From: Eledone cirrhosa
Taxonomy: Eukaryota
NCBI GenBank assembly: GCA_964016885.1
Contig: OZ024746.1
Span: 124,001 to 188,000 of the forward strand
Direction of reading: 5' to 3'
DNA: 64,000 bases
Shown here: positions 2,510 to 57,569 of the stretch, one piece after another
Layout of the letters: every line of letters starts with the position of its first letter
Position numbering within the stretch: position 1 is the first letter of the stretch
Made by a program: the position numbers and the translations under genes
Notes under the pieces: generated by a model
Database searches by the model: none
What the model was told of the DNA's origin: nothing
What the model saw: the letters and a program-made list of their open reading frames with translations, nothing else

Positions 2510-5500
2510 TCATCATCACCGTTTTACGTCCGTTCTTCCATACTAGCATGGGTTAGACGGGTTGTCCTGTTGTGGGCAGTGTCTGGTCGGCTGACCATGC
2601 CTTGTTCATACAGCAACTGATTTTGGCTTGATTTCTACAGTTGGATGCCCTTCCTAACACCAACCTCATTTACTGTGAGTGCTGGCGCTTTTTTTCCGTG
2701 GCGCCTACACGTCCACTTTACAGTGTGGGCTGGGTGCTTTTTTGTCGTGACACCTCCACGACCACTTTGCAGTGGGAGGGTGTGGGGGCATATTGTCTAT
2801 ATGCTTCAGCTTGTACCCATGGGAGGTCGGGTATACTGTATTACTACTTGACGCCAGAGGTCACGGTCGTGTGTCATCGCCTTTGAGAGGTATAATTGGG
2901 TAAGGTTGGCTTTTATCACCTCATCCCAGGTCTTCTTGGGTCTCCCACTCCGTGGTTTCCAATGACTTCTAGTGCTCTGCACCTTTTTATGCAGCTGTCA
3001 TCCTTCATACGCATCACATGTCCATAGCAACGCAACCGCCTCTCCTGCACACAGCATTTGATTCCTCTTATGCTCAGTTTCTCTCTCAGTTCATTTATGC
3101 TTTGCCGTTCGCATATATTACTATTTCACATCCATTGGAGCATGCAGACTTCGTTTCTTTCTAATCTACATAAGTCTTCCACCTTCAGCGCCCAGGTCTC
3201 ACTACCATGTAACATTGCTGTTCATAAACACGCATCATACAGTCTGCCTTTCATTTTGAGGGAAAAGCCTTTTGCAGCTAGCAGTGGCAGTAGTTTCCTG
3301 AACTTCTTCCATCCCGTTCTTACCCTAGTTATTGTACTTTCTGAACACCCACCTCCACTGCTAATTCAGTCACCTAGGTAGCAGAAGCTGTCTAATGTTT
3401 CGACAGAGCCCTCCCGGACATTGGTGGTACTTGTTTCCTGTGGCTGTTTGCTGCTTGCTGTCCCAGCACAGCTGCTACATGTGAAGCCTACATTCTTAAT
3501 TAAGCTTCCTGAGGTCCCGCTACATCTGAGTACCCATTGTTTGCATTTGGGGCAGAGAATGGAGTTCCTACCTACACCTTTCCTACATACTGAGCAATGC
3601 CATTTTCCTGAGGGGATCTGGGTTCTGTTTTCTAGTCTACTTACAAGGACCTTAGTCTTTGTCAGGTTGACTTTGAGACCCTTTCTTTCTAGTCCCTGCT
3701 TAAATGTTTGGAATTTCTTCTCTAGTTCTACCATAGATTCAGCTATAAGTGCGAGGTCATCTGCATACAGGAGTTCCCATTGGCATCTGGTCTTAAACTC
3801 CTCTGTTATTGCCTGCAGGACTATGATGAACAGGAGAGGGCTAAGAACAGAGCCCTGGTGGACACAAACCTGTACGCTAAATTCCTCGCTATACTCATTG
3901 CTAATCCTAACTTTGCTAACTGCTCCCCTATACATGGCTTGTACAACTTTCACAAGCCATTCATCTTACTCCTAGTTTTCTAAGAGCCCACCAGATTATA
4001 GCACGTGGAACTCTGTCAAAGGCTTTCTCAAGATCGACGAATGCCAGGTAGAGTGACTTACTTTTAGCTAGGTACTTTTCCTGTAACTGCCTCACAAGGA
4101 AGAGGGCATCAGTGGTGCCTCTTCCTGGTACAAACCCAAATTGCATCTCATCTAGTTTCACCCCGATCCCTAATCAACTGTGCTATAACTCTTTCTGTTA
4201 CTTTCATGACCTGGTCCATCAGCTTTATACCTCTATCTAGTGCATCACCTTTACCCTTGTAGCAGTTGACAATGATGCTACTGCTCCAATCTTTTGGTAT
4301 GACACCTTCTAGTATTACCTGGTTAACAATACGTGTGGTTATAGTGTGACCTACAGACCCAGATGCCTTCAGCATCTCGGCAGCTATACCTGATGGACCG
4401 GTTGCCTTCCCCATCTTCATATCTTTGATTGCCTTACTTACTATGCTGCTGCTGACTTGTACTGCTGGCCCCTCTATAGGGTCTACTTGGGGTAGGGTCT
4501 CTTCTTCCCATGCATTCTCCTCATTTAGTAATCTATCATAATGGCTCTTCCATGCATATTTCTTCTCAGAACTTGTGAGGGCAAGCTCACCTTTATCATT
4601 CCAGATACACTTCTCTCCAATGACATCACAATTCTCTCTGACACACTGCCTCGCAATCTTGAACACCTCCTCACGTTGCAAAACATGCTTGAATTTTCTA
4701 TCCTCTGCTTTCCTCCTAGCTAAGTATACTTGTCGCCTAGCTTCCCTCTTGGTCTCTATGTAATGTACCCTGCTTCCCCCGTTCTTCCATTCTTTCCATG
4801 CCTGTCTCTTGGCCTTAACTGCCTCATCTACCTTATTGTTCCACCACCAAGTCACTCTCATCCTGCTTGTGGTCTTACTCCAGCCACAGATCTCATCCGT
4901 CGCCTCTAGTAAGTTATTTTTTAAGAACTCCCAATGCTCTTCTACATTGAATGTCTCTATCTGTTCTTCTTTACTGTTGTAGGCATTGAGTAAAATATCT
5001 TTAAATCTGTTACTGGCTGAGGGGTCTTTCAGCTTCCAGATCTTTCTTCTCCAGGTTGGCCTCTGTTTCCAGGTTCGTCTAGTTCTGACCGTGAGGTTGC
5101 TGACAACTAAGCTATGTTGGGAGGTACATTCCTCACTAGGGAAGGCTTTTGTGTTTACAACCGTCCATCTGTCATGTCTTCTGATGAGGATAAAATCTAT
5201 CTGACTAGAATGCTCCCCTGATCTATAGGTGATCAGGTGGTTGTCGGGTTTTTTTGAAGTTTGTGTTACATATCGACATGTCATTGGCGTCGCAGAATTC
5301 TAGAAGTCTGAATCCTTCTTCATTTCTTGTGCCAACCGCATGGCCTCCATGGACTCTATTGAAGCCGTCACAGTGTTTACCTACGTGTCCGTTAAAATCT
5401 CCTGCAATGATTAGGAAGTCATTGTCATTTGTTAGAGCAGTAGTGTGCATTAGGGACTCGTAAAACCTATCCTTAAGTTCATCTGGCAACCCCGATTGGG

Positions 5501-5722
5501 GTGCGTAAGCTGATATTATTGTGGTAATTGTTTTATTTAGGACTAGTCTGAGTTTAATGATTCTTGCATTTACCCTGTTCACTGAGATTACTTTATCTAC
5601 CCACTTGTCAGCTAGTAGAATACCTACACCACCCATCCCATCGTCATTTCCCACCCAGAAAAATTTGTAGCACTGACTTTTTCCTACAAGGACTCTAGCA
5701 GACTCTCCTCTCCATCTAGTCT
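2510..5722 (-). mobile_element. 5'-truncated RTE LINE (APE endonuclease, RT, PHD-like Zn finger), frameshifted and with stops
   Basis: GVGILL...AGDFNGHVG...SQIDFIL; QFGF..GRGTTDA..FVDLEKAFDRV; QGSVLSPLLF; LLYADD; CSVC..C..C..H..C..CSSC; (GAT)n tail at about 2510. Confidence 0.95.
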
Positions 5723-6684
5723 CAATAGGTTTACTTAGATTTTTTTTCTACTCTTTCGGCTTCCTGTTATTTTGCTTCTATTGTATCGTTTAATTGATAC
5801 ATGCATACACGCTAGCTCGAAGTAGCTAGTCAGCAAATAATGTATGTAGTGATAATTGCTGTCACAATTTTATTACTCAATATTCAATGTACCAACAAGT
5901 GAATATTGTTATTGTAAAATAAACATTGTCAACATCACAATTCTGGCATTATTCTTTTTATCATTCATCCTGAAAGGAATACATTTATCCACTACATATA
6001 TGATAGGCTTGAGCATTCACTTTCCCTGCTATCAAGGGTTGGACAGGTCTTCATTAAATTTCCCTGACAAGGCATTGGTGAAGGCTTTAGTAGAAGGTAC
6101 CTGCTCAAGGTGGTGCCATGTAGTGGGATGTAATCAGAGATCATGTGGTTATCAAGTAAACTTCTTCACTACACAGTCCTACAGCTGCACCATATATAAT
6201 AATTTCATTTAAACTATCATTATTTTCAAATCTCATTGAGGTTAGCTTTAACTTTCATTCTTACAAGGTCAATAAAGTACCAATAATGCACTGGGGTCGC
6301 TTTAATCAACTTTCCTCTTCCCCTAAAATTGTACTTTGTGCCTAAATTAGAAACCATTATTTGCTGTTGCTGTTGTTGTTTCTGAAAAGTAAAATTAAAT
6401 ATACCACAAAACTAAAATATAAAAATATATAAATGTATTTCTCTGTTTTATACATGTGTTATTTGAAATACAAATAAATTGTAATTACTTCAAGACATGT
6501 GATTATAAGTTCTGTTCCATGGGTGATAGCTGTACATGAAACTGCCATGATGTAGAAATACATGGGAAATTTGGTGAAACTAGAATGAGAAGTGATCGTT
6601 ATTTTTAGATGAGAATACGAGAGGGGAAAGAAATTGTTGTTGTTTTTTTTCTTTGATTTCTATATTTATTGTATTTTTTTTTAT

Positions 6685-7526
6685 TCAACTTTTCAATTTT
6701 TTAAGAACTTCTAAAAAGCTATAGAAAGCTTTCATCTTTTCTTCATGCATTTTACGCATTTCCAGGCGATCTTCTTCTTGCTGGCGTTTCTCTTCCTCCT
6801 TATTTGCTTTGAGCCAGTTGAGAATGTCCATGGTGCTGCATTCTGAGGAACGTGGTCGTTTTGGTTTGAAGCGTCGAACTTTTTCTGCAGAATTCTCCAG
6901 AATGTCAGTTGCACAGTTCGATGATGTACTTGCCAAACTAATTGATATCACATTTGATTGTCCAAGAATCTCAGATATTTCATCATAAAAACTACATTTC
7001 CGTTTTAGTCCAGAGTTTCTGTTGTATTCTTCAACTTTTTTGAAAGACAGTTTTAGCGACTTCCATTTATTTTCACATTGTCGGGCACTAATTTCAAAAC
7101 CATATTCAAGCATCTTTTTAGAAATTTCTTCCCAAAGATTCTTTTTCTTAATGTTTGGTTGTAGAAAAAGTTCATGGTAGTGTTTATAGAGTTCGATAAA
7201 CAGTCTAGTTGATTGTTCATTCCACTGGTAAGCATCTTTCTTGAAATCAGCTATATTGATACCATTCTTTGATGTGAAAGATTCTTCCGTGAGCTGGACA
7301 GCCTCTGAAGGTATTGTGGAAACACCATTAGTTGTACTTCCAATACTAACTGTACAAGGCGGGCTAGACCATACTGAAGAAAGGGGTAATACAGGAGTAG
7401 CAACATCTATTGGGGTTGTAGCAGAAGCTACTGAAATAGCTGTCTGGGCAACAGATGTCACTACAGGCACAATAGCGTTGGCATCTTTCATGGAATTTTT
7501 TATCCCTTTCACATCTTTTGATCCGT
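6685..7526 (-). CDS. CIDE-N/Myb-SANT gene, terminal exon (Myb/SANT-like domain about 6960-7230, C-terminal coiled coil)
   Basis: ctctctcttttcag acceptor at 7527-7529; uninterrupted ORF to TGA; AATAAA candidates near 6665 and 5869 on the minus strand. Confidence 0.88.
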
Positions 7527-8521
7527 CTGAAAAGAGAGAGAGAAGTAAGAATTCATAGAATAATGAGAAACACAAGAATAGCTGATAAAACAACGCCGTC
7601 AATGACAGTGTAGGGTAAAAATTACCTCAAAGGACAGAAATCAGTGGCTAGAAGTGTGTTGGCCTGCAGAAGTGATAGGAAGAAAAATAATTGTTTCTAC
7701 TTTAGGCACAAGGCCAGCAATTACCCAGTGCATTACTGGTACTTTATTTTATCGACCCCGTAAGGATGAAAGGCAAAGTCAACCTTGGCGGGATTTGAAC
7801 TCAGATCGTAAAGGGACGTAACTATGCTGGAAAGCATGGCGACCGACCCTCTACCGAAATTTCCTATGATATTCACTATCTCTTTGTCTTAGGTCCATAA
7901 CTCCTAAGGAAGTGATAGGGATGCCGTATCTCTATATGGCATGTCTAAGGCATTTTTAAACATGGTGGAATCCATCTCTTCTCCAGGTCTGAATACAGCA
8001 GATTTCTTCCAAAGAAGGATAAAGAGAGTGACGGAAAGGAAATGAGAAAGAGATATAGAGGAAGAATCAACCCCAGTACTTAACTCGTACTTTTTTATCG
8101 ACCTTGAATAGATGAAAGGCAAAGTTGACCTCAGCAGAATTTGAATTCAGAGAACAAACAAATATGCAAAGCATTCTAACAACTCTGCCAATTTATTGTC
8201 TATTCTCCATGTATGTAACTCTTAACCCATAATTCCTCATGGGGTTGTAGGGGTGCCAGTGTGACAGTATTTCTAGGGCATTTTACACCTGGTGGAGCCC
8301 ATCCCCTCTGTATCAGTCTTTACTTTTCTCTTGAATAACATTGGTGGCATGGAGAGGAGAGACTGGTATGCATGGGTAACTGCTGGTCTTCCACAAACAA
8401 CCTTGCTCGGAATTGTGCCTTGGAGGAGAACTTCCTAGATGCAAAACCCATGGTTGTTCATGACGAAAGGTAGTCTTTACTCTTTATAAACATATCTATA
8501 TATATGCAGAACAGGACTAAC

Positions 8522-8553
<32 letters not shown>

Positions 8554-8797
8554 GTAATATATATATATATATATTTATTTATTTATTTATGTAATAAACA
8601 AGATAAGATAATTATTTCATTTACCAATGGTTTCTTGTTTTTATTCATTCTGACGACTGAAGACAGATACAACATCTTTCTTCAAGAAACCACTGGTAAA
8701 TGAAATAATTATCTTATGTTGTTTATTACATAACTAATAAGCTCTGTAGCCTACATAGAGCACTTTTTTTCCTGTACCTTTCCGACGGAAATACTTC

Positions 8798-8839
<42 letters not shown>

Positions 8840-9096
8840 TCATCATCATCATCGTTTAATGTCTATCTTACATGGTAGCATGGGTTAGACGGGTTTGTCC
8901 CATTTGAGGCAAGTTGGGTGACCGTGTCTCACTCGAATACAAATGTTTCTGGCTGGTTTTCTATGGCTGGATGCCCTCCCTAATGTCAACCACATTTACA
9001 GTGTGGACTGGGTGCTTTTTGTCGTGACACCTACACGACCACCCTTACAGAGTAAGGGTGGTGTGGACGGAAGTGAGAGGGAGGTGTAGGGGTGTG

Positions 9097-9147
<51 letters not shown>

Positions 9148-12100
9148 CCGCCCTGTCCTTCTCCTCAATCTTTCTATTTCTTCTTTAATTTCTCATTCTA
9201 TCTTCTGATGAAGGACTAGCATCAGAAATGTTAAGACTCTTTTCCTACTATATCAAACATAAAACTAATAATATATTTCTTCATTGTACTGTGTTGTTTG
9301 CTTTGTTATTTCTGTTTGCCTTTTGCATACATATATATATGTAATCAGTTCCCGTCCCACCCTTGCAAGCAGGGAAAAGCGGATGTAAAATGAAATGATG
9401 AAAATGATGATGAAATGTATGCAAAAGGGGTGCAAATTTTTCATATTACCCACTCTACTACCCCAAGTATCGAGTACTCTAGTGAGTAATGGTCTAATTG
9501 GTTTTTACCGCCTCCATTCTGATATATATATATATATAATGGGTAGATAAGGTAATCTCAGTGAACAGGGTGAGCGCAAGAATAAAACAATTGCCACAAG
9601 AATATCAGCTTACGCACCCCAATCAGGGTTGCCAGACGAACTTAAGGATAGGTTTTACGAGTCCCTAATGCACACTACTGCCCTAACAAACAACAATGAC
9701 TTCCTAATCATTGCAGGAGATGTTAACAGAGATATTGGTAAACACCGTGATGGCTTCTATAGAGATCACAGAGGCCACAGGTCTGGTAGAAGAAATGAAG
9801 AAGGATTCAGGCTTCTAGAATTCTGAGACGCCAATGACATGTCGATATGTAACACAAACTTCAAAAAACCCGACAACCATTTGATCACCTATAGATCAGG
9901 GGAGCATTCTAGTCAGTTGGATTTTATCCTCATCAGAGGACATGATAGATGGACGGTCGTAAACACAAAAGCCTTCCCTAGTGAGGAATGTACCTCCCAA
10001 CATAATTTAGTTGTCAGCGACCTCACTGTCAGAACTAGACAAACTTGGAAACAGAAGGCAGCCTGAAAAAGAAAGATCTGGAAGCTGAAAGACCCCTCAG
10101 CCAGTAACAGATTTAAAGATATTTTACTCAACACTGATGACAGTAAAGAAGAACAGATAGAGACATTCAATGTAGAAGAGCATTGGGAGTTCCTAAAAAA
10201 TAACTTACTAAAGGTGACGGACGAGATCTATGGTTGGAGCAAGACCACAGGGAGGAGGAGAGTGACTTGGTGGTGGAACAATAAGGTAGATGAAGCAGTT
10301 AAGGCCAAGAGACAGGCATGGAAAGAATGGAAGAACGGAGGGAAGCAAGGTACATTACATAGAGACCAGGAGGGAAGCTAGGCGACAAGTATACTTAGCT
10401 AGAAGGGAAGCGGAGGATAGAAAATTCAAGCATGTTTTGCAACACGAGGACCAGAAAGAGGAGATGTTCAAGATTGCGAGGCAGTGTGTCAGAGAGAATT
10501 GTGATGTCGTTCGAGAGAAGTGTAACCGGAATGATAAAGGTGAGCTTGCCCTCACAAGTTCTGAGAAGAAATATGCATGGAAGAGCCATTATGAAAGATT
10601 ACTAAATGAGGAGAATGCATGGGAAAAAGAGACTCTACCCCAAGTGGACCCTATAGAGGGGCCAGCAGTACAAGTCAGCAGCAGCATAGTAAGTAAGGCA
10701 ATCAAAGATATGAAGACGGGGAAGGCAACCGGTCCATCGGGTATAGCTGCCAAGATGCTGAAGGCATCTGGGTCGGTAGGTCACACCATAACCACATGTA
10801 TTGTTAACCAGGTAATACTAGAGGGTATCATACCAAAGGATTGGTGCAGCAGCATCATTGTCAACTGCTACAAGGGTAAAGGTGATGCACTAGATAGAGG
10901 AAACTATAGAGGTATAAAGCTGATGGACCAGGTCATGAAAGTAACAGAAAGAGTTATAGCACAGTTGATTAGGGACTGGGTAAAACTAGATGAGATGCAA
11001 TTTGGGTTTGTGCCAGCAAAAGGCGCCACTGATGCCCTCTTCCTTGTGAAGCAGTTACAGGAAAAGTACCTAGCTAAAATTAAGTCGCTCTACCTGGCAT
11101 TTGTCGATCTGGAAAAAGCCTTCGACAGAGTCGCCCATGCTATAATCAGGTGGGCTCTTAGAAAACTGAATTGCTTTTGAAAGCTGTACAAGCCATGTAT
11201 AGGGGAGCAGTCAGCAAAGTTAGGATTAGCAATGACTATAGCGAGGAATTTAGCATACAGGTTGGTGTCCACCAGGGCTCTGTTCTTAGCCCTCTCCTGT
11301 TCATCATAGTTTTGCAGGCAATAACGGAGGAGTTTAAGACCGGATGCCAATGGGAACTCCTGTATGCGGATGACTTCGCACTTATAGCTGAATCTATGGT
11401 AGAACTAGAAAAGAAATTCCAAACATGGAAGCAGGGACTAGAAAGAAAGGGTCTCAAAGTCAACCTGACAAAGACTAAGGTCCTTGTAAGTAGACGAGAA
11501 AACAGAACCCAGATCTCCTCAAGGAAGTGGCCTTGCTCAGTATGTAGGAAAGATGTAGGTAGGAACTCCATTCTCTGCCCCAAATGCAAACAATGGGTAC
11601 TCAAGAGATGTAGTGGAATCTCAGGAAGCTTAACTAAGAATATAGGCTTCACATGTAGCAGCTGTGCTGGGACAGCAAGCAGCAAATGGCCACAGGAAAC
11701 AAGCACCACCAAACTGTGGGAGGGCTCTGTAGAAACAGCAGACAGCTTCTGCTACCTAGGTGACCAAATTAGCAGCGGAGGTGGGTGTTCGGAAAGTACA
11801 ATAACTAGGGTAAGAACGGGATGGAAGAAGCTAAGGGAGCTACAGGCCACTGCTAGCTGCAGAAGGCTTTTCCCTCAAAATGAAAGGCAGACTGTATGAT
11901 GCGTGTATACGAACAGCAATGTTACATGGTAGTGAGACCTGGGCACTGTCTGTGGAAGACTTGCGTAGATTAGAAAGAAACGAAGCTTACATGCTCCGAT
12001 GGATGTGTAATAGTAATATACGCGAACGGCAAAGCATAAATGAATTGAGAGAGAGGCTGAGCATAAGAGGAACCAAATGCTGTGTGCAGGAGAGGAGGTT

Positions 12101-13954
12101 GCGTTGGTATGGGCATGTGATGCGTATGAAGGGTGACAGCTGCATAAAAAGGTGCAGAGCACTAAAAGTCATTGGAAACCGCGGAGTGGGGAGACCCAAG
12201 AAGACCTGGGATGAGGTGATAAAAGCTGACCTTACCCAATTACACCTCTCAAAGGCGATGACACACGACCGTGACCTCTGGCATCACGCAGTAATACAGA
12301 AGAGCCGACCCCCCACGGGTACAAGCCGAAGCTGAAGGATAATGACAATATGCCCCCACGCCCCTCCCACTGTAAAGTGGACGTGTAGGCGCCTCAGAAA
12401 AAAAGCACCCAGCACTCACTGTAAATGAGGTTGGTGTTAGAAAGGGAATCCAGCTGTAGAAAGCAAACCAGAATCAGTTCCCGTATGAGCAAGACAAGGT
12501 CAGCCGACCGGACACTGCCTACAACAGGACAACCCATCTAACCCATGCTAGCATGGAAGAACGTACGTAAAACGGTGATGATGATATATATGTATATATA
12601 TATATCATCATCATCATCATCATATATATATACACTGGTATATTTCTTACCTCCTTCATTTGCTGAATGCCATCTTTCATCAGATTCCAAGAGAACAAAT
12701 ACTGTATCATTAGGAAGAAGAGCAAAATAATCGTCATCATCTACATCGGTGCCGTCAGCTTCCAACACTAACCGAATATCGGTGCCGCTCGCTAAACCTA
12801 GTTTCACTTTACCTGCATTAAAAGAAAACAAAAAAAATGGGTTATATTAATTTTTCTTCTTAAGCAGATAGTGGTGATGATGATGATGATGATGGTGGTT
12901 GTTGGGGTGGTGGTGGTGATGATGATGATGATGGTGGTTGTTGGGGTGATGGTGGTGGTGATGATGATGATGATGGTGGTTGTTGGGGTGATGGTGGTGG
13001 TGATGATGGTTGTTGGGGTGATGATGATGGTGGTTGTTGGGGTGATGGTGGTTGTTGGGGTGATGGTGGTGGTGATGGTGGTTGTTGGGGTGATGGTGGT
13101 GGTGATGGTTGTTGGGGTGATGATGATGGTGGTTGTTGGGGGTGATGGTGGTGGTTGTTGGGGTGATGATGATGGTGGTTGTTGGGGGTGATGGTGGTGG
13201 TGGTGGTTGTTGGGGTGATGGTGGTGGTGGTTGTTGGGGGTGATGGTGGTGGTGGTGGTGGTTGTTGGGGTGATGGTGGTGGTGGTGATGATGATGAGGA
13301 AGAGGAGGATGACAGTGATGGTGATGATGAGGAGGGGGTGACAGTGATGGTGAGGAGGAGGAGGAGGATGAGGAGGAGGAGGAGGAGGAGGAGGAGGAGG
13401 ACAGTGGTGGCGATGTGGAGGAGAAGGTGAAGGATGACAGTGATGATGAGGAGGGGGTGCAGGTGGAAGATGACAGTGATGGTGATGATGAGGAGGAGGA
13501 GGTGGAGGATGACAGTGATGGTGAGGAGGAGGAGGAGGAGGAGGAGGAGGAGGAGGAGGAGGATGATGACAGTGATGGTGATGATGATGATTTGCTGTTT
13601 CAACTGTCAGTTTCTACTTTCTTCTGCAATTCTACAGACTTCACCATTTTTAAAACATGTTTTTGCCACATTCCCAAAATGAAATGTGATTCCTCCTCCT
13701 TAAAGATTGAGTTGACCAGTGACCAAAGACATTCCTGCCATGGACATCGCATCTAAAATCCCATTATCCAATGTACACTTTACAATTGTTTTAAGAAAAA
13801 TGGAGTTGAGATTTGATAATAGGGAGGTTTGATCTCAGATCATGGTGACCCATCCAACACACTCTAACATGGAAAATAGACTAAAATGATGATATATATA
13901 TGTGTGTGAGTGTGTGTGAGTGGAGGGGAGTGTGTGTGTGTGTGTGTGAGTGTG

Positions 13955-14015
<61 letters not shown>

Positions 14016-14369
14016 CTGTGTGTGTGTGTGTAGCAAAATTTATTGGAGTGAAATTTGCTATGGTACAAAAATATGGCATATTAGCGTATTTTTGAATCAT
14101 CTGCCATTTTCATCAATTCTGAAGAAAATAACTGATGGACACTAGTCAGGCAGTACCAATGTTGGGTGGAAAATGGACTTTAAATGGTGATGATGGAAAC
14201 AACTGAAAAAAAGAATAATTTTACCCTTTAGAACTAAATCTTGTAGATTACTGGCTACAACTGGTTTTTTGGTGGTTCTCTCACTGTTCCAGATTTTAAA
14301 GGCTTTGGGATTTTGGTTGGGAGCTTGATTGGGAGTTTGGTTGAGAGTTTGGTTGGGGGTTTGACTCAT
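6685..14369 (-). CDS. Spliced gene (CDS exons 14369-14225, 12812-12651, 7526-6685; 1149 nt, 382 aa): CIDE-N domain + S/T-rich linker + Myb/SANT-like (Myb_DNA-bind_4/trihelix) domain + coiled coil
   Basis: Both introns are GT-AG and phase 1, joining in frame (LVLK-G-KVKL; ANEG-D-GSKD). CIDE-N motifs KAFKIWNSERTTKKPVVASNLQDL...LVLEADGTDVDDDDYFALLPNDTVFVLL...W; SANT-like W..E.T..FI...LWEEIS..M...G...S..QCENKWKSL...FYDEI..ILG. Confidence 0.85.
7695..7860 (-). mobile_element. SINE family copy (core gccttttcatccttacggggtcgataaaataaagtaccag)
   Basis: Near-identical reverse complement of 23915-24098; B-box-like gagttcaaatccc. Confidence 0.75.
8587..8733. repeat. Foldback element with about 50-bp inverted arms, between (TA)n tracts
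   Basis: ttatgtaataaacaagataagataattatttcatttaccaatggtttcttg ... caagaaaccactggtaaatgaaataattatcttatgttgtttattacataa. Confidence 0.75.
9201..9236 (+). ncRNA. Degenerate minimal hammerhead motif
   Basis: TCTT-CTGATGA-AGGACTAGCATCA-GAAA-TG-TT-AAGA; stems II and III decayed. Confidence 0.4.
9539..12583 (+). mobile_element. 5'-truncated RTE LINE, same family as 2510-5722, in intron 2 of the CIDE-N gene
   Basis: ORFs 9629-12335 nearly identical in protein to the minus-strand copy; same 3' UTR and tail. Confidence 0.95.
12651..12812 (-). CDS. CIDE-N/Myb-SANT gene, second coding exon (C-half of CIDE-N)
   Basis: taatgcag acceptor, G|gtaaga donor, 162 bp; KVKLGLASGTDIRLVLEADGTDVDDDDYFALLPNDTVFVLLESDERW. 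Confidence 0.9.
12870..13590. repeat. Compound (GAT/GGT/GAG)n trinucleotide low-complexity tract in intron 1
   Basis: Visible repeat; the ORFs across it are homopolymeric artefacts. Confidence 0.95.
14225..14369 (-). CDS. CIDE-N/Myb-SANT gene, first coding exon (QTPN repeats + N-half of CIDE-N); exon acceptor at 14402-14404 gives a short 5' UTR
   Basis: ORF MSQTPNQ...KAFKIWNSERTTKKPVVASNLQDLVLKG; donor G|gtaaaa at 14224; upstream ctttcag acceptor. Confidence 0.85.
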
Positions 14370-15204
14370 GTTTGAAGAATAACGCCTACATCAAACAACG
14401 TCTGAAAGATAAAAAAGTGCAAAAATTAAAATATTTAGCATTACATTATATTTTTATCTTCCACCCAAAGTCAGATTAAAGCAACTAGGGCCCTGGACTA
14501 GAGAACATTTAGAATCCTCAAGCCTACACCTAAAACGATATTGAGATTTCAGCATCAATCCATGCCAACATCTAAAACAGAGGTGATATCAAATGACAGG
14601 GTTGAATTAAAGCAACTAAGGACCCTGGACTAGAAAACATTTCAAACTTCACCCATGCTAGCGTGGAAAATGGACGTTAAACGAAGATGATGATGATGAT
14701 GATGATGACTCACAAGAAATTTAATGAAAATTAAAAGTATATGAATGTAATTCTACCAATAGAAAGTAAGATCCTAGCATCAATCCCTGCCAACCTATAA
14801 AACAGAAGTAACACCTTCAAAAATGTATCTAATAACAATTATAATATCCTAAACTTTGATAAAAATGTTTCATATTTCATAGTTATATTTTAATCCAGGG
14901 ATCACAAACATGCGATCCACAAACTACTTTTTTATGGCACATAGTAGAACAATTTTTGTGATCAACATTTTCCTAAAACTTGGTAATTTGTTAATAAATG
15001 GCAGCCTAAAGCTATAATGTAGATTGGCATTATAGCTGGTAGAAATCTTCCTCAGACACATTTCACTTTTGGCCTGCTGTGCCTCTCCCTCCCCCACCTG
15101 AACAGAATAGTTCTTTTGTTGAGTTTAAGAGCCCCTGTCTTGTTCTGTTCCATATTCTGTTGGAGGTCTCAGTAGACATCAAGAACACCAATCTCTCTCA
15201 CAGA

Positions 15205-15400
15205 CGAGAAAGGACCTCTAAGGTTCATGTCTGCTACCACCATCACACCACCACTACTAGTACTACTACTCACAAACCAGAAAGGACCTCTAAGGTTCAT
15301 GTCTGCTGCTGCTACCACCACCACTACTACTACTACTAACATACTATTACTACTACTACTACTCACAAACCAGAAAGGATCTCTAAGTTTCATGCCTACT
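15205..15400. repeat. About 80-bp tandem repeat x2.5
   Basis: gaaaggacctctaaggttcatgtctgct...(tac)n cacaaacca. Confidence 0.8.
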
Positions 15401-16417
15401 TCTACTCACACTAATTAAGGATTTTTCATTTAGGTCACATGGCTAGTAATTTGGTGGGAGAAAAGGGGGATTAAATCAACCTCATTACTTGACTGCTACT
15501 TTTATTTTATCGACTCCTGAGAGGATAAAAGTCAAAGTTGACCTTTGTAGGATTTGAACTTAGAATGTAAAAGGGTGTAACTGTACACTGCAAAGCATGG
15601 TGTCTGACGCTCTACCAATACTGCCAATCCACTGCCCTCAACTCGCACAAATAACAACAAAGCTATCTGGTCCAATGCCAAAACTATTGTGAATTAGATG
15701 CTTATTGTCTTGCTTTCTATAATACACATGAAATCCAACCTTCATATGCTGAACTCTATTTTCATAATAAGTGGAAGAAATACGTTATAATTAGTTATGG
15801 TAATTACCAGGGTAAACTATAATTAAAATTTGTCAGCAATTAACAAAAGAATGAGATCTTGAAAAAGACTTTGTAAAAATGCATTATTTAAAAACAGAGG
15901 AAAAGTTGCCAAAAGAATATATTTCTATGTAAGTTGTAATATATTTATATTATATTACAGTCTAAAGTGGAGTTTGTCATCTCTTACAACATGGTCTTAA
16001 CATTTGTATGTATGTATATATGTATTTGTATATATGTACATATGTTTGTATGTGTGCATGTGTGTGTATGTATGTATGAATGTATGTATATATGTCTATA
16101 TGTGTGTATGCATGCATGCATATAAGTATGAATGAATATATATATATATGTATGTACTCATGTATACAGTAGCCAATGGTACCAGCACAAACTAACCCAT
16201 AATAGGCTGTCATATCATCCTCCATCCCTGTTCAGCATCTATGTTATGCAGAGCCCCAGGCCCAGGTGTACACCATCTCATGGTGCCAGCAAGAGAAGTG
16301 TACTGAAAGAGCAATTCCAACTCACAGGGATAATTCCTGTGGAGGGCCCCAACTCCATCTTGATAGCATTGAGTAGAGAGGTGATGCAGGGATCAACAAT
16401 ACCAAAGGTTTCCATCT

Positions 16418-51800: not shown

Positions 51801-54800
51801 AATAGTTCAGATACACTGTTATCTATTCATAAAAACTATTAAATTTTTACTTATAAAAATAATGTATATCTATTTAATTTTGTCTCACAAAATAATGTGT
51901 ATTTGTTGATTTTGCACTATCATCATCATCATCACCGTTTTACGTCCATTCTTCCACGCTAGCATGGGTTAGACGGGTTGTCCTGTTGTGGGCAGTGTCC
52001 GGTCGGCTGACCATGCTTTGCTCATGCGGGAACTGATTCTGGCTTGATTTCTACAGCTGGATGCCCTTCCTAACACCAACCTCATTTACAGTGAGTGCTG
52101 GGTGCTTTTTTGCCGTGGCACCTCCACGACCACTTGGCAGTGGGAGGGTGTGGGGGCATATTGTCTATATGCTTCATTTCGGCTTGTACCTGTGGGGGGT
52201 CAGGTCTTCTGTATTACTGTGTGACGCCAGAGGTCACGGTCGTGTGTCATCGCCTTTGAGAGGTGTAATTGTGTAAGGTCGGCTTTTATCACCTCATCCC
52301 AGGTCTTCTTGGGTCTGCCCTCTCCACTCCGCGGTTTCCATTGACTTCTAGTGCCCTGCACCTTTTTATGCAGCTGTCATCCTTCATACGCCTCACTTGT
52401 CCATACCAACGCAACCGCCTCTCCTACACACAGCATTTGATTCCTCTTATGCTCAGTCTCTCTCTCAATTCATTTATGCTTTGCCGTTTGCGTATATTAC
52501 TATTACACATCCATAGGAGCATGCAGGCTTCGTTTCTTTCTAATCTACGCAAGTCTTCCACAGACAGCGTACCAGGTCTCACTACCATGTAACATTGATG
52601 TTCGTATACACGCATCATACAGTCTGCCTTTCATTTTGAGGGAAAAGCCTTTTGCAGCTAGCAGTAGCTCCCTGAACTTCTTCCATCCCATTCTTACCTA
52701 GTTATTGTACTTTCCGAACACCCACCTCCGCTGCTAATTTGGTCACCTAGGTAGCAGAAGCTGTCTACTGTTTCTACAGAGCCCCCCAGAGTTTGGTAGT
52801 ACTTGTTTCCTGTGGCTGTTTGCTGCTCCAGCACAGCTGCTATATGTGAAGCCTACATTCTTAGTTAAGCTTCCTGAGATCCCACTATATCTCTTTTGCA
52901 CCCATTGTTTGCATTTGGGGCAGAGAATGGAGTTCCTGTGGTGAGAAAGCTAGTCCACTTACCGCGAGTCTGCTGGTTCACTCAAAGCCGTGCATCAATC
53001 TTTGTGTTATAATCCATTTGCCAAGCTGCAGCTTCATCTTGTACGTCCGTCTTTCTCCAAGTCAAAGCAAGAGACGCAGCCTACAGACGGCGCCTCGGAA
53101 ATGCATCTGACGTCACTCCTCCTCTGCCTCCGGTCAAGCATCCCCAGCTTCCAGTCACCTCTTCCACACAGCCCCCCCCCCCCTGATCTCAAGGATCAAT
53201 CTCCCCCTCACACTGCTGCATATGATAATCTGCCGTCCACCCAGGCAGTCGGCGATCCCATTGCGATCTCCGTAATGTTGGGGCGGCGCTTTCGATTTCC
53301 TCTTCCTCAGAGTCTGTCAACACTACGATTCTACGGACATGCAGGACATGACATGGCACTCCGTCCACAGAGATGTTATTCTGGGAATTTACGGCCGGTA
53401 CCGTTCCCTTTCCCCATTGAGATGTGCAGCGTGTGTCTGGGGGTTTAACCCAGACTTCCTCGCCCACCTGTACAAATGCGTTCTCTCTCTCTACTGGCCG
53501 TTGTGGTACCGTGTACGGGTGCCGCCACTCGTATTTGTATATCGCTCTGTTTGGCACCGATTCCTCAGCCTGTCTCACTCAAGGTACATGTTGTACCAAA
53601 ACACTGTCTCTATTGGTGAGATGTGCCCCCGTCCGCCATTGCTTTGATTGTGTGGTGGTGTCGCTCCACGATCCCATTTCCGCTTGGCCTGTATGCTGCT
53701 CTGAAGAAGCGGTCCACCTTCCACCCATCAAGCATTTCCCACAGTGCCTCCGAGCGGAACACTGCGCTATTATCCATCAGCAGTTCATCCATAGGGCCCC
53801 GCTCCAAGAATATCTCTCTCAACGTCCGTGTGATTTCCTCCGCAGTTCCCATCTTCATTTCCCTCCATATCGCCATCCGTCCCAGTCCACAATCAACCAT
53901 CGAGAGGTATGTTCCCTGTCGGTAGTGTGTTACGTCCACCGCCAATCGCTTCCAGTTGCAGCCTCTGGACACTGTCTCTGCTAATGTCGGAATCGATTCT
54001 CCTGGCTAGGAACAGGGTCCTATCCACTCCCATGTGGTGCATGGCATGCAACCCTTTATGGTCCGACTAGCTCACTCGACACACAGCGGCTATCCCCTCT
54101 TCTGCATCCTCCGGCGCTTCCATCCAGGCTTTCTTCACCCTGGTTAAAACGTCTGCTCTATTTTTCTCTGAGGGCACGAAGATTACACTCAACTTCAGGC
54201 CGAACTTGGTGGCCAGCTCTCCTAGAGTTCCCAGGCGGCGCTTTATCAGCATTTCTGCCGCCCCTCTTGTTCGCACTCTCTTCTCACTGGTAAGCACTGA
54301 CCTCACCCATCCGAGTACAGTTGCCGAGTCGGTGTGAATCTTGATGGTGCGCAGTCCCCACCTCAAGGTGAGGTTCACCCCTCTCAACACAGCGTCCAGC
54401 TCGGACACATTGATGTGGTTACAATCATCTTTCTTCCTGAGCCAGGCTGCATCCTCGACCTCGACACCTCCTATTTCCAGTGTGACACCTAACGCTATGC
54501 TGCTGGCATCACACCATTCGGTCCCGCTCTGCGATTCGGGGACATACCAGCATCCTCGCACCGGGTCATCGGCCTTCACCCTCCCCACGATCCTCTGCAT
54601 CATGGCCATCATTTCTCTCCCACCTTGTCACTCCAAGTCACCCCGTCCGCTCGTCTCTTGACATAGCTGCATGCCGTCCGGACCCACCCAGCGATTGGGT
54701 AGTGACCCACCAATTTTCCACACACCGAGAAGAGTTCCTGTCTATTCATATTTGGGCCCAGTTCCGGGACTTCATTTCCCCTCCGAAATACCAACGTGCC

Positions 54801-57569
54801 CATCTTGTCTCTTCACAGCCTAAGTCCTAGTGCGGCTCCTCCCACCAACGCATCTGACGGCTTCGCAGTCAATTCGTATCCTCGCAAATGGCTTGTGACC
54901 TCTGCCGCCGACACTATAGTCTCGTCCACTAAGATGTCATCGATGTAGGAATTGGTGGCCCTCTTCATCTTGTCGGCCTTTCCCAGAATGGTCTTGAGGA
55001 CCGCCGCCATGATCTTCGGTGCAGAGTTCAGCCCGAAACCAAGCCTGGTCAGGCAATATGTCCGGCCCTTATACCTGACAAGCTGATACTGCCACAGCTT
55101 CTCCTCCACGTGTAGCTGTAGATATGCCGACTTTAAGTCGACAATCGTGGAAGCCCCCGTCATACGTCTCCACTTGTGCAAAGTTTCCCCGCAGACATCC
55201 GTCACCTCACCATCCGTGTGACACGACACATGCTCGTTCAGCTCCCGAAAATCCAACACTGGTCTCACCTTGTTCTTTGTGGGTTGCACCACAGCCATTA
55301 ACGGCAGCACCCCACACTTCACCTCCTCCTTCCAGGGAACCAGTATGCCGTCCTCGATCCATCTCTCTACCTCTTGCTCAAACTCTCTCCTAGTATCTCC
55401 TTTCAGTGTGTGCTGATAGCAACCCACTTTGTTCTTCAGTGTTGGCGGTTCTCCCTTCCAGTACCACTCAACAATCCATCGTTGCCCGTCGAACACGGCC
55501 TTGAAGTCCTTATCCTGTACGGTGTGAGCGGCATAATTTTCCTCGTGGGCCTTCTCGCCCTCCTGACGCATACTAACAGCGCATGCTGGTGCAGCGCTAC
55601 CAAATGTTACTCCGACATTGTTCACTATGTCGCCTCCTAATCGCCCAATCGTGTCCATGCCCATAACCACGTTAATTCCATCCACTACGCAGTCGACCAC
55701 AATGGCTGAAAGCCTAATTCTCTTTCCCCTTACCACCATCTCCACTTCGCTGCGACCTCTACCTTCAATATTCCTGCCATCGACTGCCCTTTTGATGCTC
55801 CCCCCCCCTGTAGTCACCAGTGTCTTTGTACATCCCGTGGCCACAAGGGCTCGTAAAGGCTTTCCCTTCACCAGGACTTTCACCACAGGCAGCGCCTGTA
55901 CACTCGAGGGTAGCTACCGGCGCAATAGCCCCCCTTGGACCGTTTCCCTGGTCGCAATTGGTAGCGATGTGGCCCAGCCGCCTACACCGGTAGCAAATTA
56001 TGTCTGGTTTCGACTCACCATGTGCGCACCCATCAAATCTCTCGCCATGTGCGCACCCTGGCACCTATAACAACGACCCCTAAATGTGCGTGGGCGACTG
56101 TTCGTCACCCTTTCGGCATTTCGCTGTCGGCTGCCCCGGGCCTCCATCGCTGCTATTGCCGCAACACTCTACTTAGCATCTTCCGCTATGATGTGGGCTT
56201 GCTCTACCAATGTACACAGCTCCATTTTCTTGTAGCCAGGTATTTGCTGCAGTCTCACTGCGATGTCATCCGCAAATCTGTTTATAAATGCCAGCCGCAC
56301 TGCACACTCGCACTCAACCTGAAACCCTGCCAGCATGGCCAATCTTCTTATCTCCGCAGCAAAAATATCCACACGCTGACCTTCCCACCTTATCCTTGCC
56401 AGCTTGGCAAACACGGTACACGGACCTTCCGCAAACGCTTCCATCATACGACGCTCAATTTTTTGCGCGTCCCTCTGGCTGATTTCGTCCATCTTGAGGT
56501 ACAATTCTAGCACATCCCCCTCGACATATAGCGCCATGAGACCGGCCACATCGTCTATCTTTTGTAGCTCGGTGACCACCCGGACCTTTCGCATCCAAGC
56601 GATAACGTCTCCTTCACCAGTGAAAGCTTTAAGTACTTCACCAGTGAAAGCTTTAAGTACTTCACCGGTGAAAGCTTTAAGTACTTCACCGGTGAAAGCT
56701 TTAAGTACTTCACTGCTCAACCGTAATCTCGTCGCCATCTCTTTAGTCCTGCGGTAAGTAATAAAACAAGATAGTCTTTGTTTTCGAGTAGCTTTGTCCC
56801 TTCTTTTTTTTTTTTTTTTTTTTTTTTTTTTCTTCAATTGTACGTCTTCATGTGCCGAAATAGCTTGTGGTGAGAAAGCTATTCCACTTACCGCGAGTCT
56901 GCTGGTTCACTCAAAGCCGTGCATCAATCTTTGTGTTATAATCCATTCGCCAAGCTGCATCTTCATCTGGTACGTCCGTCTTTCTCCAAGTCACCGCGAG
57001 AGACGCAGCTTCGGAAATGCATCTGACGTCACTCCTCCTCCGCCTCGGTCAAGCGTCCCCAGCTTCCAGTCACCTCCTCTATACAGCCCCACAGTTCCTA
57101 CATACTGAGCAAGGCCATTTCCCTGAGGGGATCTGGGTTCTGTTTTCTCGTCTACTTACAAGGACCTTAGTCTTTGTCATGTTGACTTTGAGACCCTTTC
57201 TTTGTGTACAACATCATCATCATCATCATCTTCGTTTAACGTCCATCTTCCACGCTAGCATGGGTTAGACGGGAGTTGTTCCACTTGAGGCAAGATTGAT
57301 CGGGTGACCGTGTAACGCTCGTATAGGACTATCTGGCAGGTTTTCTACGGCTGGATGGCCTTCCTAACACCAACCACATTTACAGTATGGAACTGGGAAC
57401 TTTTTACCGTGTTACCTACACGGCCACATTACAGCGTGGAGTGTGTGTTTTTCTGTTGTGACACCTACACGATCTCGATCTCATTATCTCATTTATTTGG
57501 ACTGGATGTGTGTAATGTATATATATCATCATCATCATTTTTATGTCCGTTTTTCCCTGCTTACATGGG

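Follow-up and report, generated by a model that had tools for sequence, protein, structure and literature searches.

Within the window, the whole stretch of 64,000 nucleotides of Eledone cirrhosa DNA analysed here, lies a real, spliced and coleoid-conserved gene that encodes a CIDE-N domain followed by a Myb/SANT-like trihelix domain. As judged from its sequence, the CIDE-N half derives from the DFF45/ICAD (DFFA) gene, and the last exon is a Myb-like ORF of PIF/Harbinger transposon origin. The gene is best read as part of a co-domesticated Harbinger pair, the DNA-binding partner of which would have acquired a polymerising CIDE-N domain. On balance, we consider it probable that DFFA CIDE-N exons and a Harbinger Myb ORF came together in a nuclear DNA-binding adaptor that is predicted to self-assemble through CIDE-N and would recruit a co-domesticated transposase devoid of catalytic residues.

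Three minus-strand exons, with coding portions of 145 nt (14369-14225), 162 nt (12812-12651) and 842 nt (7526-6685), form an open frame of 382 amino acids (aa). The features of the locus are the following:

14225..14401, minus strand: first coding exon, with a 32-nt UTR and the ATG at 14369, encoding aa 1-48; first part of CIDE-N, with basic K25, K34 and K35
12813..14224, minus strand: intron 1, GT-AG, phase 1, with simple repeats
12651..12812, minus strand: second coding exon; rest of CIDE-N, with the acidic patch D68-D76 and the Dffa-type VDDxxYF signature
7527..12650, minus strand: intron 2, GT-AG, phase 1
10290..11899, plus strand: broken LINE reverse transcriptase within intron 2, with RVT_1 matches; outside the system
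6685..7526, minus strand: last coding exon; S/T/P/V-rich linker, then a Harbinger-type Myb module
6961..7230, minus strand: Myb/SANT-like trihelix domain, aa 202-291, with W204, W234 and W257
6850..6882, minus strand: basic stretch, aa 318-328, a predicted nuclear localisation signal
6688..6837, minus strand: C-terminal helix, aa 333-382, with the MHxEKM motif common to transposon-borne Myb ORFs
6440..6684, minus strand: 3′ UTR, covered by a contig of run X4

CIDE-N is spread over the first two of these exons (Pfam E-values of 6.9e-5 and 5.2e-15), and the third contains Myb_DNA-bind_4 (PF13837; E = 1.2e-19). The intact three-exon gene proposed by a sequence-only reading of this DNA is borne out by its introns, its open frame and a single 1594-nt contig of run X4, in which segments 14220-14403, 12651-12807 and 6440-7526 are contiguous; splicing of the 12651 donor to another exon, the point singled out there for checking, is thus not supported. 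The library type of run X4 is not on record, and we infer that it represents RNA because its contigs skip introns exactly; a contig of run X1 (6024-7642) runs unspliced across the 7526 acceptor. The exon carrying the ATG begins at 14401, and an in-frame stop precedes the ATG. A further 166 letters of the X4 contig lie upstream, unmapped within 5500-15500, and therefore what had been counted as the first exon is the second exon of the gene. The 12651 donor has 25 candidate acceptors downstream of it, and the one at 7526 combines the best pyrimidine tract (14/14) with the longest open frame (279 aa). This analysis, together with the joined contig, rules out a chance exon join, and a processed retrocopy as the source of the spliced contig was rejected because the last exon has only one close match in genome G000. 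A separate Myb-only gene was likewise dismissed, given the joined contig and an internal methionine of the last exon that is not conserved.

The gene is single-copy, intact and, as judged from the spliced contig, transcribed, and has orthologues across species. Both domains co-occur in 4 of the 154 proteins examined, all cephalopod or cephalopod-like, and two-domain orthologues come from Octopus vulgaris, O. sinensis, O. bimaculoides and Argonauta, as well as from Logan records that include one match to a cuttlefish model; the orthologues are confined to octopods and cuttlefish. The architecture, which we did not find in the literature searched, is thus not widespread, but it is not new to databases, being already present in automatic annotation (RefSeq/UniProt). 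Compared with two decapod-like orthologues, identity amounts to 63-65 of 76 positions in CIDE-N, 84 of 91 in SANT and 41 of 50 in the C-terminal helix, versus 23-25 of 88 in the linker, and W204, W234 and W257 are kept in all aligned orthologues.

The DFFA ancestry of the CIDE-N half is supported by intron phases: those of the fusion gene (1-1) match those of the two DFFA paralogues of this genome, A and B (1-1-0), and of vertebrate Dffa, given as 1-1-0-1-0 in the available text of PMC2426694. In the CIDE-N tree, the fusion, A and B form a polytomy. Among solved structures, DREP2 is the chain nearest to the fusion CIDE-N (E = 7.4e-17). At the 12 filament-interface positions listed for DREP2 in the accessible part of PMC6292858, the fusion has 6 identical residues and 3 of the same charge, including the K13 equivalent, whereas the remaining 3 differ, two of them shifted toward acidic. 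The acidic and basic patches named in the sequence-only reading are both present. What the fusion lacks is the remainder of a DFF45-type protein. A home-made profile that detects the DFF-C exons of A and B found none at 94-218 kb of contig C6, which leaves no DFF-C region within 36 kb downstream of the fusion; the Pfam DFF-C profile had no match anywhere in the genome and is uninformative. No DxxD site occurs in the fusion outside CIDE-N, whereas A and B carry a DxxD-G site after CIDE-N.

These features bear on a reading in which the protein is an apoptosis adaptor or decoy, with its CIDE-N pairing with the corresponding domain of either CAD/DFF40 or a DFFA paralogue, and thereby either tethering the nuclease to selected DNA or capping CAD filaments so that caspases could not free them. 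ICAD requires its DFF-C region to chaperone and inhibit CAD, and the absence of such a region downstream makes this role improbable. The basic face of CIDE-N is also kept, consistent with self-pairing, and DREP2 is described as synaptic in the part of PMC4229683 available. In favour of an apoptotic role are the DFFA derivation and net acidity of the fusion CIDE-N (14 D/E, 10 K/R), given that the basic face of CAD binds the acidic face of ICAD (PMC8891305, available in part), as well as the presence of a DF​F40-like gene at C28:104.78-104.85 Mb and the loss of the DxxD-G site.

The transposon origin of the last exon is indicated by its free-standing relatives. A convergent DDE transposase match accompanies 8 of 18 such loci; all 8 belong to the 9 loci that have 2 kb or more of downstream sequence, and they represent five independent groups. 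One locus, L042, is a whole element: it has 42-nt terminal inverted repeats (TIRs), a 3-bp target duplication and a DDE_Tnp_4 ORF that is intact. Of 6 loci examined, 1 showed TIRs that enclose both ORFs. The relatives within Harbinger elements have the same SANT and MHxEKM layout as the fusion, and several occur in multiple copies (clusters of 9, 24 and 4 members). The earlier suggestion that a CIDE-N gene captured a Harbinger DNA-binding ORF thus gains direct support. Identity of the fusion module to transposon-borne ORFs is only ~25-34%, which would suit an ancient host trihelix gene that moved into DFFA by shuffling; this origin appears very improbable in view of the shared layout and multi-copy relatives, as does the related notion that CIDE-N is a passenger retained only for its promoter, since CIDE-N is conserved far better than the linker. 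In the Myb module tree, the fusion module is placed nearest to a long-branched, unnamed protein (94/87), and the closest solved structure to the trihelix is GT-1 (E = 3.5e-11). This genome contains nine Myb_DNA-bind_4 matches and four DDE_Tnp_4 genes, all of the latter dissimilar single loci. No DDE remnant or intact transposase was matched beside the fusion, which, with no adjacent transposase and no multiple copies, is not an active Harbinger transposon.

A Harbinger transposase gene without catalytic residues does reside, in antisense, in intron 2 of DFFA paralogue B, the counterpart of the intron that separates CIDE-N from the Myb exon in the fusion. A contig of run X4 joins exons 2 and 3 of paralogue B across the nested gene; run X1 has no contig over L010:1-420 and hence provides no DNA control there. 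The nested gene is conserved across coleoids, its six orthologues forming one clade (100/100), and in all six the first D, the GD aspartate and the E are replaced. We take these to be the catalytic positions, an assignment that agrees with the intact L042; the encoded protein is likely disabled. In the transposase tree, these sequences fall into an unresolved clade together with two further altered DDE genes from this genome. The surroundings of the nested gene yielded no Myb remnant. Other Myb_DNA-bind_4 genes of this genome could serve as partners of this transposase.

The fusion and the transposase gene share a contig in this genome, at a distance of 26.3 Mb, and occupy separate contigs in Argonauta. 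Elsewhere, linkage is read from accession order and contig size rather than DNA alignment: in cuttlefish, CAE1322973 (5′ part of the fusion), 975 (DFFA) and 978 (transposase) fall on one 3.5-Mb contig, and the corresponding pairs are LOC106873631 and LOC106873678 in O. bimaculoides and XP_029637809 and XP_029637761 in O. sinensis. The separation, the GT-1 match and the presence of other Myb and DDE genes are compatible with a stand-alone trihelix factor (MSANTD- or GT-1-like), which CIDE-N and the C-terminal helix only oligomerise, the transposase acting alone or with another Myb protein. We regard this as unlikely, albeit credible: both genes share an intron position, convergent orientation, a common taxonomic range and probable ancestral linkage, and co-domesticated pairs often become unlinked later, according to the available text of PMC9710019. 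The likeliest partner of the fusion is the catalytically altered transposase nested in the DFFA paralogue.

Under the preferred reading of a co-domesticated pair, a Harbinger element would have inserted into DFFA intron 2 before the octopod/decapod split, with its Myb ORF in sense and its transposase in antisense to DFFA. After tandem duplication, one copy would have spliced CIDE-N onto the Myb ORF and dropped the DFF-C exons and the caspase-like site, yielding the fusion, and another, paralogue B, would have retained the DFFA exons and nested transposase and lost the Myb ORF. The shared intron position, convergent sense and accession-order linkage favour a single insertion. The trees do not decide; the Myb and transposase trees do not point to a parent element and CIDE-N forms a polytomy, and two separate insertions are therefore conceivable. 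In the resulting protein, the trihelix would bind DNA and the basic stretch would import the complex. In the manner of HDP2-HDP1 or NAIF1-HARBI1, the C-terminal helix, a candidate transposase-binding region, would retain the transposase-like protein, which would serve as a scaffold on chromatin; CIDE-N domains pairing head to tail would add multivalency. In the accessible part of PMC5339849, DNA binding by HDP2 needs three tryptophans, which the fusion keeps, and the C-terminal region of HDP2 binds HDP1. A more elaborate version, in which a single Harbinger jump into the ancestral coleoid ICAD produced a Myb protein that polymerises on DNA via CIDE-N, a dead transposase scaffold and co-assembly with CAD/ICAD filaments, is doubtful; if true, it would couple caspase signalling in octopus, squid and cuttlefish to gene regulation at specific DNA sequences.

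The AlphaFold2 model, based on a five-sequence alignment, had a mean pLDDT of 43.6 (low confidence), with CIDE-N not folded, and Foldseek returned no match for it at E ≤ 0.001 (top row GT-1, E = 0.17). Complex prediction for the O. bimaculoides transposase-like protein and fusion residues 180-370 scored 0.00 twice, run with no alignments and with controls unfolded, and counts neither way; ESM Atlas matches were below 0.9 and serve only as leads.

The locus offers a coleoid-specific, datable gene birth, the stages of which can still be traced in the genome through the donor gene, the intron of insertion, the captured ORF and the partner that survives. CIDE-N, a polymerisation domain otherwise met in apoptosis, at lipid droplets and at synapses, here sits on a DNA-binding protein, so that chromatin organisation by CIDE filaments, or a link between caspases and transcription, becomes directly testable.

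Harbinger co-domestication, described in vertebrates (NAIF1-HARBI1), Arabidopsis (HDP2-HDP1, ALP2-ALP1) and insects (APM-APLG, DPM-DPLG), would extend to cephalopods, with fusion to a host domain added. All these pairs share with the putative pair here a three-tryptophan Myb/SANT trihelix, a basic stretch and a transposase without catalytic residues; they are single-copy and conserved, linked in some species and apart in others. In the putative pair, the Myb partner bears a fused CIDE-N of host origin, an arrangement not described in the available text of the literature searched on Harbinger pairs, and the transposase gene sits within an intron of a paralogue of the donor. Vertebrate MSANTD1-4 and plant GT-1 resemble the fusion in their Myb_DNA-bind_4 domain, but no CIDE-N has been described for them, and the MSANTD genes are reported to be separate vertebrate domestications (PMC9392472, available in part). 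DFF45/ICAD and Drosophila DREP1-3 share the CIDE-N with Dffa signature, phases 1-1 and acidic and basic faces, whereas the fusion has a DNA-binding domain instead of the DFF-C region and DxxD site. Among the filament-forming CIDE-N proteins (DREP2, DREP4, DFF40), which polymerise through opposed basic and acidic faces, DREP2 has 12 interface residues of which 9 are matched in the fusion by identity or charge; polymerisation of the fusion itself is a prediction. A parallel in mode of origin is provided by vertebrate CIDEA/B/C, which are proposed to have arisen when a copy of the Dffa CIDE-N acquired a new C-terminal domain (PMC2426694); there the new part is CIDE-C, for lipid droplets, whereas in the fusion, which arose independently, it is a transposon DNA-binding module.

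The sequence-only reading had proposed a gene of three exons with canonical phase-1 introns and an intact 382-aa frame, combining CIDE-N and Myb/SANT-like domains in one protein. Splice-site and frame analysis bore this out: both introns are GT-AG and of phase 1, the joined frame is open over 382 aa, an in-frame stop precedes the ATG, and Pfam places both domains in the predicted fusion protein.

14369-14225, minus strand: fusion coding exon 1, CIDE-N, first part
12812-12651, minus strand: fusion coding exon 2, CIDE-N, second part
7526-6685, minus strand: fusion last coding exon, Myb_DNA-bind_4

Of 25 plausible acceptors 3′ of the second donor, the one at 7526 ranks first both for its pyrimidine tract and for the length of its open frame. 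The 12651/7526 junction, for which RNA reads had been called for, is crossed by a single contig (1594 nt) of sequencing run X4, which maps in three pieces, contiguous in the record, ending at the exon edges; because of these joints, we take X4 to be RNA. The contig carries 166 further letters upstream of its mapped part, which points to a first exon that is untranslated and lies outside 5500-15500. Sequencing run X1 reads through the 7526 acceptor. At the N-terminus of the fusion (14336-14369, minus strand), a short QTPN-like repeat occurs about three times, compared with once in the other orthologues, amounting to 12 extra aa. Elsewhere in the window, LINE fragments are numerous, and a broken LTR-retrotransposon-like element (53000-57000, minus strand) yields RVT_1 and integrase matches.

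Searching with the last exon recovered four proteins among 576 candidates, all with both Pfam domains, and a profile search recovered six among 8000 candidates scored. The named carriers are Octopus vulgaris, O. sinensis, O. bimaculoides, and Argonauta hians; protein P0004 appears decapod-like from its sequence, and cuttlefish model P0005 is identical across its CIDE-N and linker to full-length record P0159. The P0005 match ends just before the SANT domain, where the model continues into sequence resembling an intron; cuttlefish may thus have an additional intron at this point that is absent from octopods. A profile search over 1.84 billion representatives gave 2188 matches, the best 150 of which were examined (floor, 63.6 bits). 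Among the resulting 154 proteins, CIDE-N was found in 48, SANT in 110, and both in only four, all cephalopod-type, so that the architecture is indeed not widespread among these best 150 of 2188 matches. Since a two-domain protein elsewhere should score above the floor, a wide taxonomic range is unlikely, with the proviso that the collections may not include Nautilus. Identity between the fusion and two decapod-like orthologues is high in CIDE-N (63-65/76), SANT (84/91), and the C-terminal helix (41/50), compared with the linker (23-25/88), a pattern that indicates probable selection on all three domains.

The suspected Harbinger-type source of the Myb exon gained support from its closest free-standing relatives, which share its layout of SANT domain, low-complexity spacer, basic stretch, and MHxEKM helix. 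In 8 of 18 metagenome loci, representing five independent groups, a DDE transposase match lies downstream on the opposite strand; such a match is present in 8/9 loci whose downstream sequence reaches 2 kb or more versus 0/9 with less than 1.4 kb. One metagenome locus, L042 (1173-5588), is a complete element with 42-nt terminal inverted repeats and a 3-bp flanking duplication, in which a Myb ORF is accompanied by an intact DDE_Tnp_4 ORF; apparently intact, it is a useful living model of the donor element. In the Myb-module tree, the nearest row, modestly supported, is an unnamed protein, and no specific parent element is singled out.

The genome contains four DDE_Tnp_4 matches and four CIDE-N loci, namely, the fusion, one locus 5′ of DFF40 nuclease exons (contig C28), and two DFFA-like paralogues, A and B, on the contig carrying the window (C6).

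C6:26,402,7xx-26,438,700 (26.40-26.44 Mb; L047, L010, L007, L008), B on minus strand: A and B, DFFA-like, tandem, 196 and 204 aa
C6:26,417,4xx-26,421,927, plus strand: transposase-like gene, one of the four DDE_Tnp_4 matches, two exons, flanked by minus-strand B exons 2 and 3

A and B each have four exons with phases 1-1-0 and are fast-evolving, with long branches; in the CIDE-N tree, they form a polytomy with the fusion (36% and 42% identity). The fusion carries the VDDXXYF signature of vertebrate Dffa, and its two phase-1 introns agree with the start of the Dffa series 1-1-0-1-0 (PMC2426694). After CIDE-N, A and B each have a caspase-like DxxD-G site, which the fusion lacks; a search around the fusion brought up no DFF-C-like exon. 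B is spliced in X4, where a contig joins its exons 2, 3, and 4 with loose ends coinciding with exon edges; thus, the transposase-like gene is nested in B intron 2. The order along B (first the CIDE-N exons and then, after 5.9 kb, the transposase in antisense, 3′ end first) is the convergent arrangement of free Harbinger elements minus the Myb ORF, none of which was detected beside the nested transposase. The fusion is the complement, with the Myb ORF kept and the transposase missing. Transposase orthologues occur in three octopuses, Argonauta, cuttlefish, and unnamed transcript-length records; the six aligned form one clade, and in all six the two aspartates (the first and that of GD) and the glutamate, all kept by L042, are replaced. 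Accession order suggests linkage of the fusion and the transposase-like gene in cuttlefish, where CAE1322973, 975 (DFFA), and 978 share one 3,537,254-bp contig, and also in O. bimaculoides (LOC106873631 and LOC106873678) and O. sinensis (XP_029637809 and XP_029637761), each of the latter two pairs being on same-length chromosomes. Against linkage, however, the two genes lie 26.3 Mb apart in Eledone cirrhosa and on separate contigs in Argonauta.

Three further DDE_Tnp_4 ORFs, all long and open and each matched once, were noted at C22:30.03 Mb (L026), C2:80.36 Mb (L027), and C6:20.47 Mb (L028). At least one usually catalytic position is altered in each of the first two, and the third carries a THAP remnant; all three are probably further domesticated Harbinger/ISL2EU genes. 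About 0.9 Mb from L028, a second intact Myb_DNA-bind_4 exon (L014:7046-8344; C6:19.585 Mb) with a 433 aa frame and a C-terminal charged helix is another candidate domesticated Myb ORF. The DFF40/CAD-like gene (C28:104.78-104.85 Mb) is spread across ~65 kb, one matched stretch containing an internal stop, probably at an intron edge.

Automatic annotation already holds the architecture as ‘uncharacterized’ or ‘DFFA-like.’ Other proteins also carry CIDE-N next to a chromatin domain, namely, C2H2 zinc fingers (P0077) and a CW finger (P0064), in single unverified models that may be mis-joined. Another single, possibly mis-joined model, snail DFFA P0049, continues into a long extra region without a Pfam match, which we take to resemble uracil-DNA glycosylase. 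Within the full-text literature, outside of which most subscription papers fall, we found nothing on a CIDE domain in molluscs, CIDE-N in cephalopods, the gene identifiers of the fusion, or the co-domestication/fusion combination, and none of the broader matches listed concerns the fusion gene. In the available main text of a survey of transposon-derived factors including Octopus, ‘CIDE’ is absent, and its supplements could list the gene (PMC10027918); the available part of PMC3417536 mentions CIDE for the nuclease only. We read the gene as a probable case of Harbinger co-domestication to which a host-domain fusion, not described in the literature covered, has been added.

In Harbinger pairs already characterised, DNA binding falls to the Myb protein, which also binds the transposase and carries it into the nucleus (PMC9392472, PMC9710019). 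In HDP2, DNA binding depends on three tryptophans, and binding of HDP1 on the C-terminal region (PMC5339849). CIDE-N domains form head-to-tail polymers via charged faces (PMC8891305, PMC6292858). The fusion retains a basic stretch (aa 318-328) and a conserved C-terminal helix alongside the three HDP2-type tryptophans; of 12 interface residues of the Drosophila CIDE-N protein DREP2, six are identical in an ungapped alignment, three keep their charge, and three differ. Together with the known pairs, these features favour, by a modest preference, a nuclear adaptor that would bind DNA, oligomerise through CIDE-N, and carry the altered transposase, which would serve as a chromatin scaffold. A stand-alone trihelix factor seems rather improbable, and a tether or decoy for CAD/ICAD somewhat more so.
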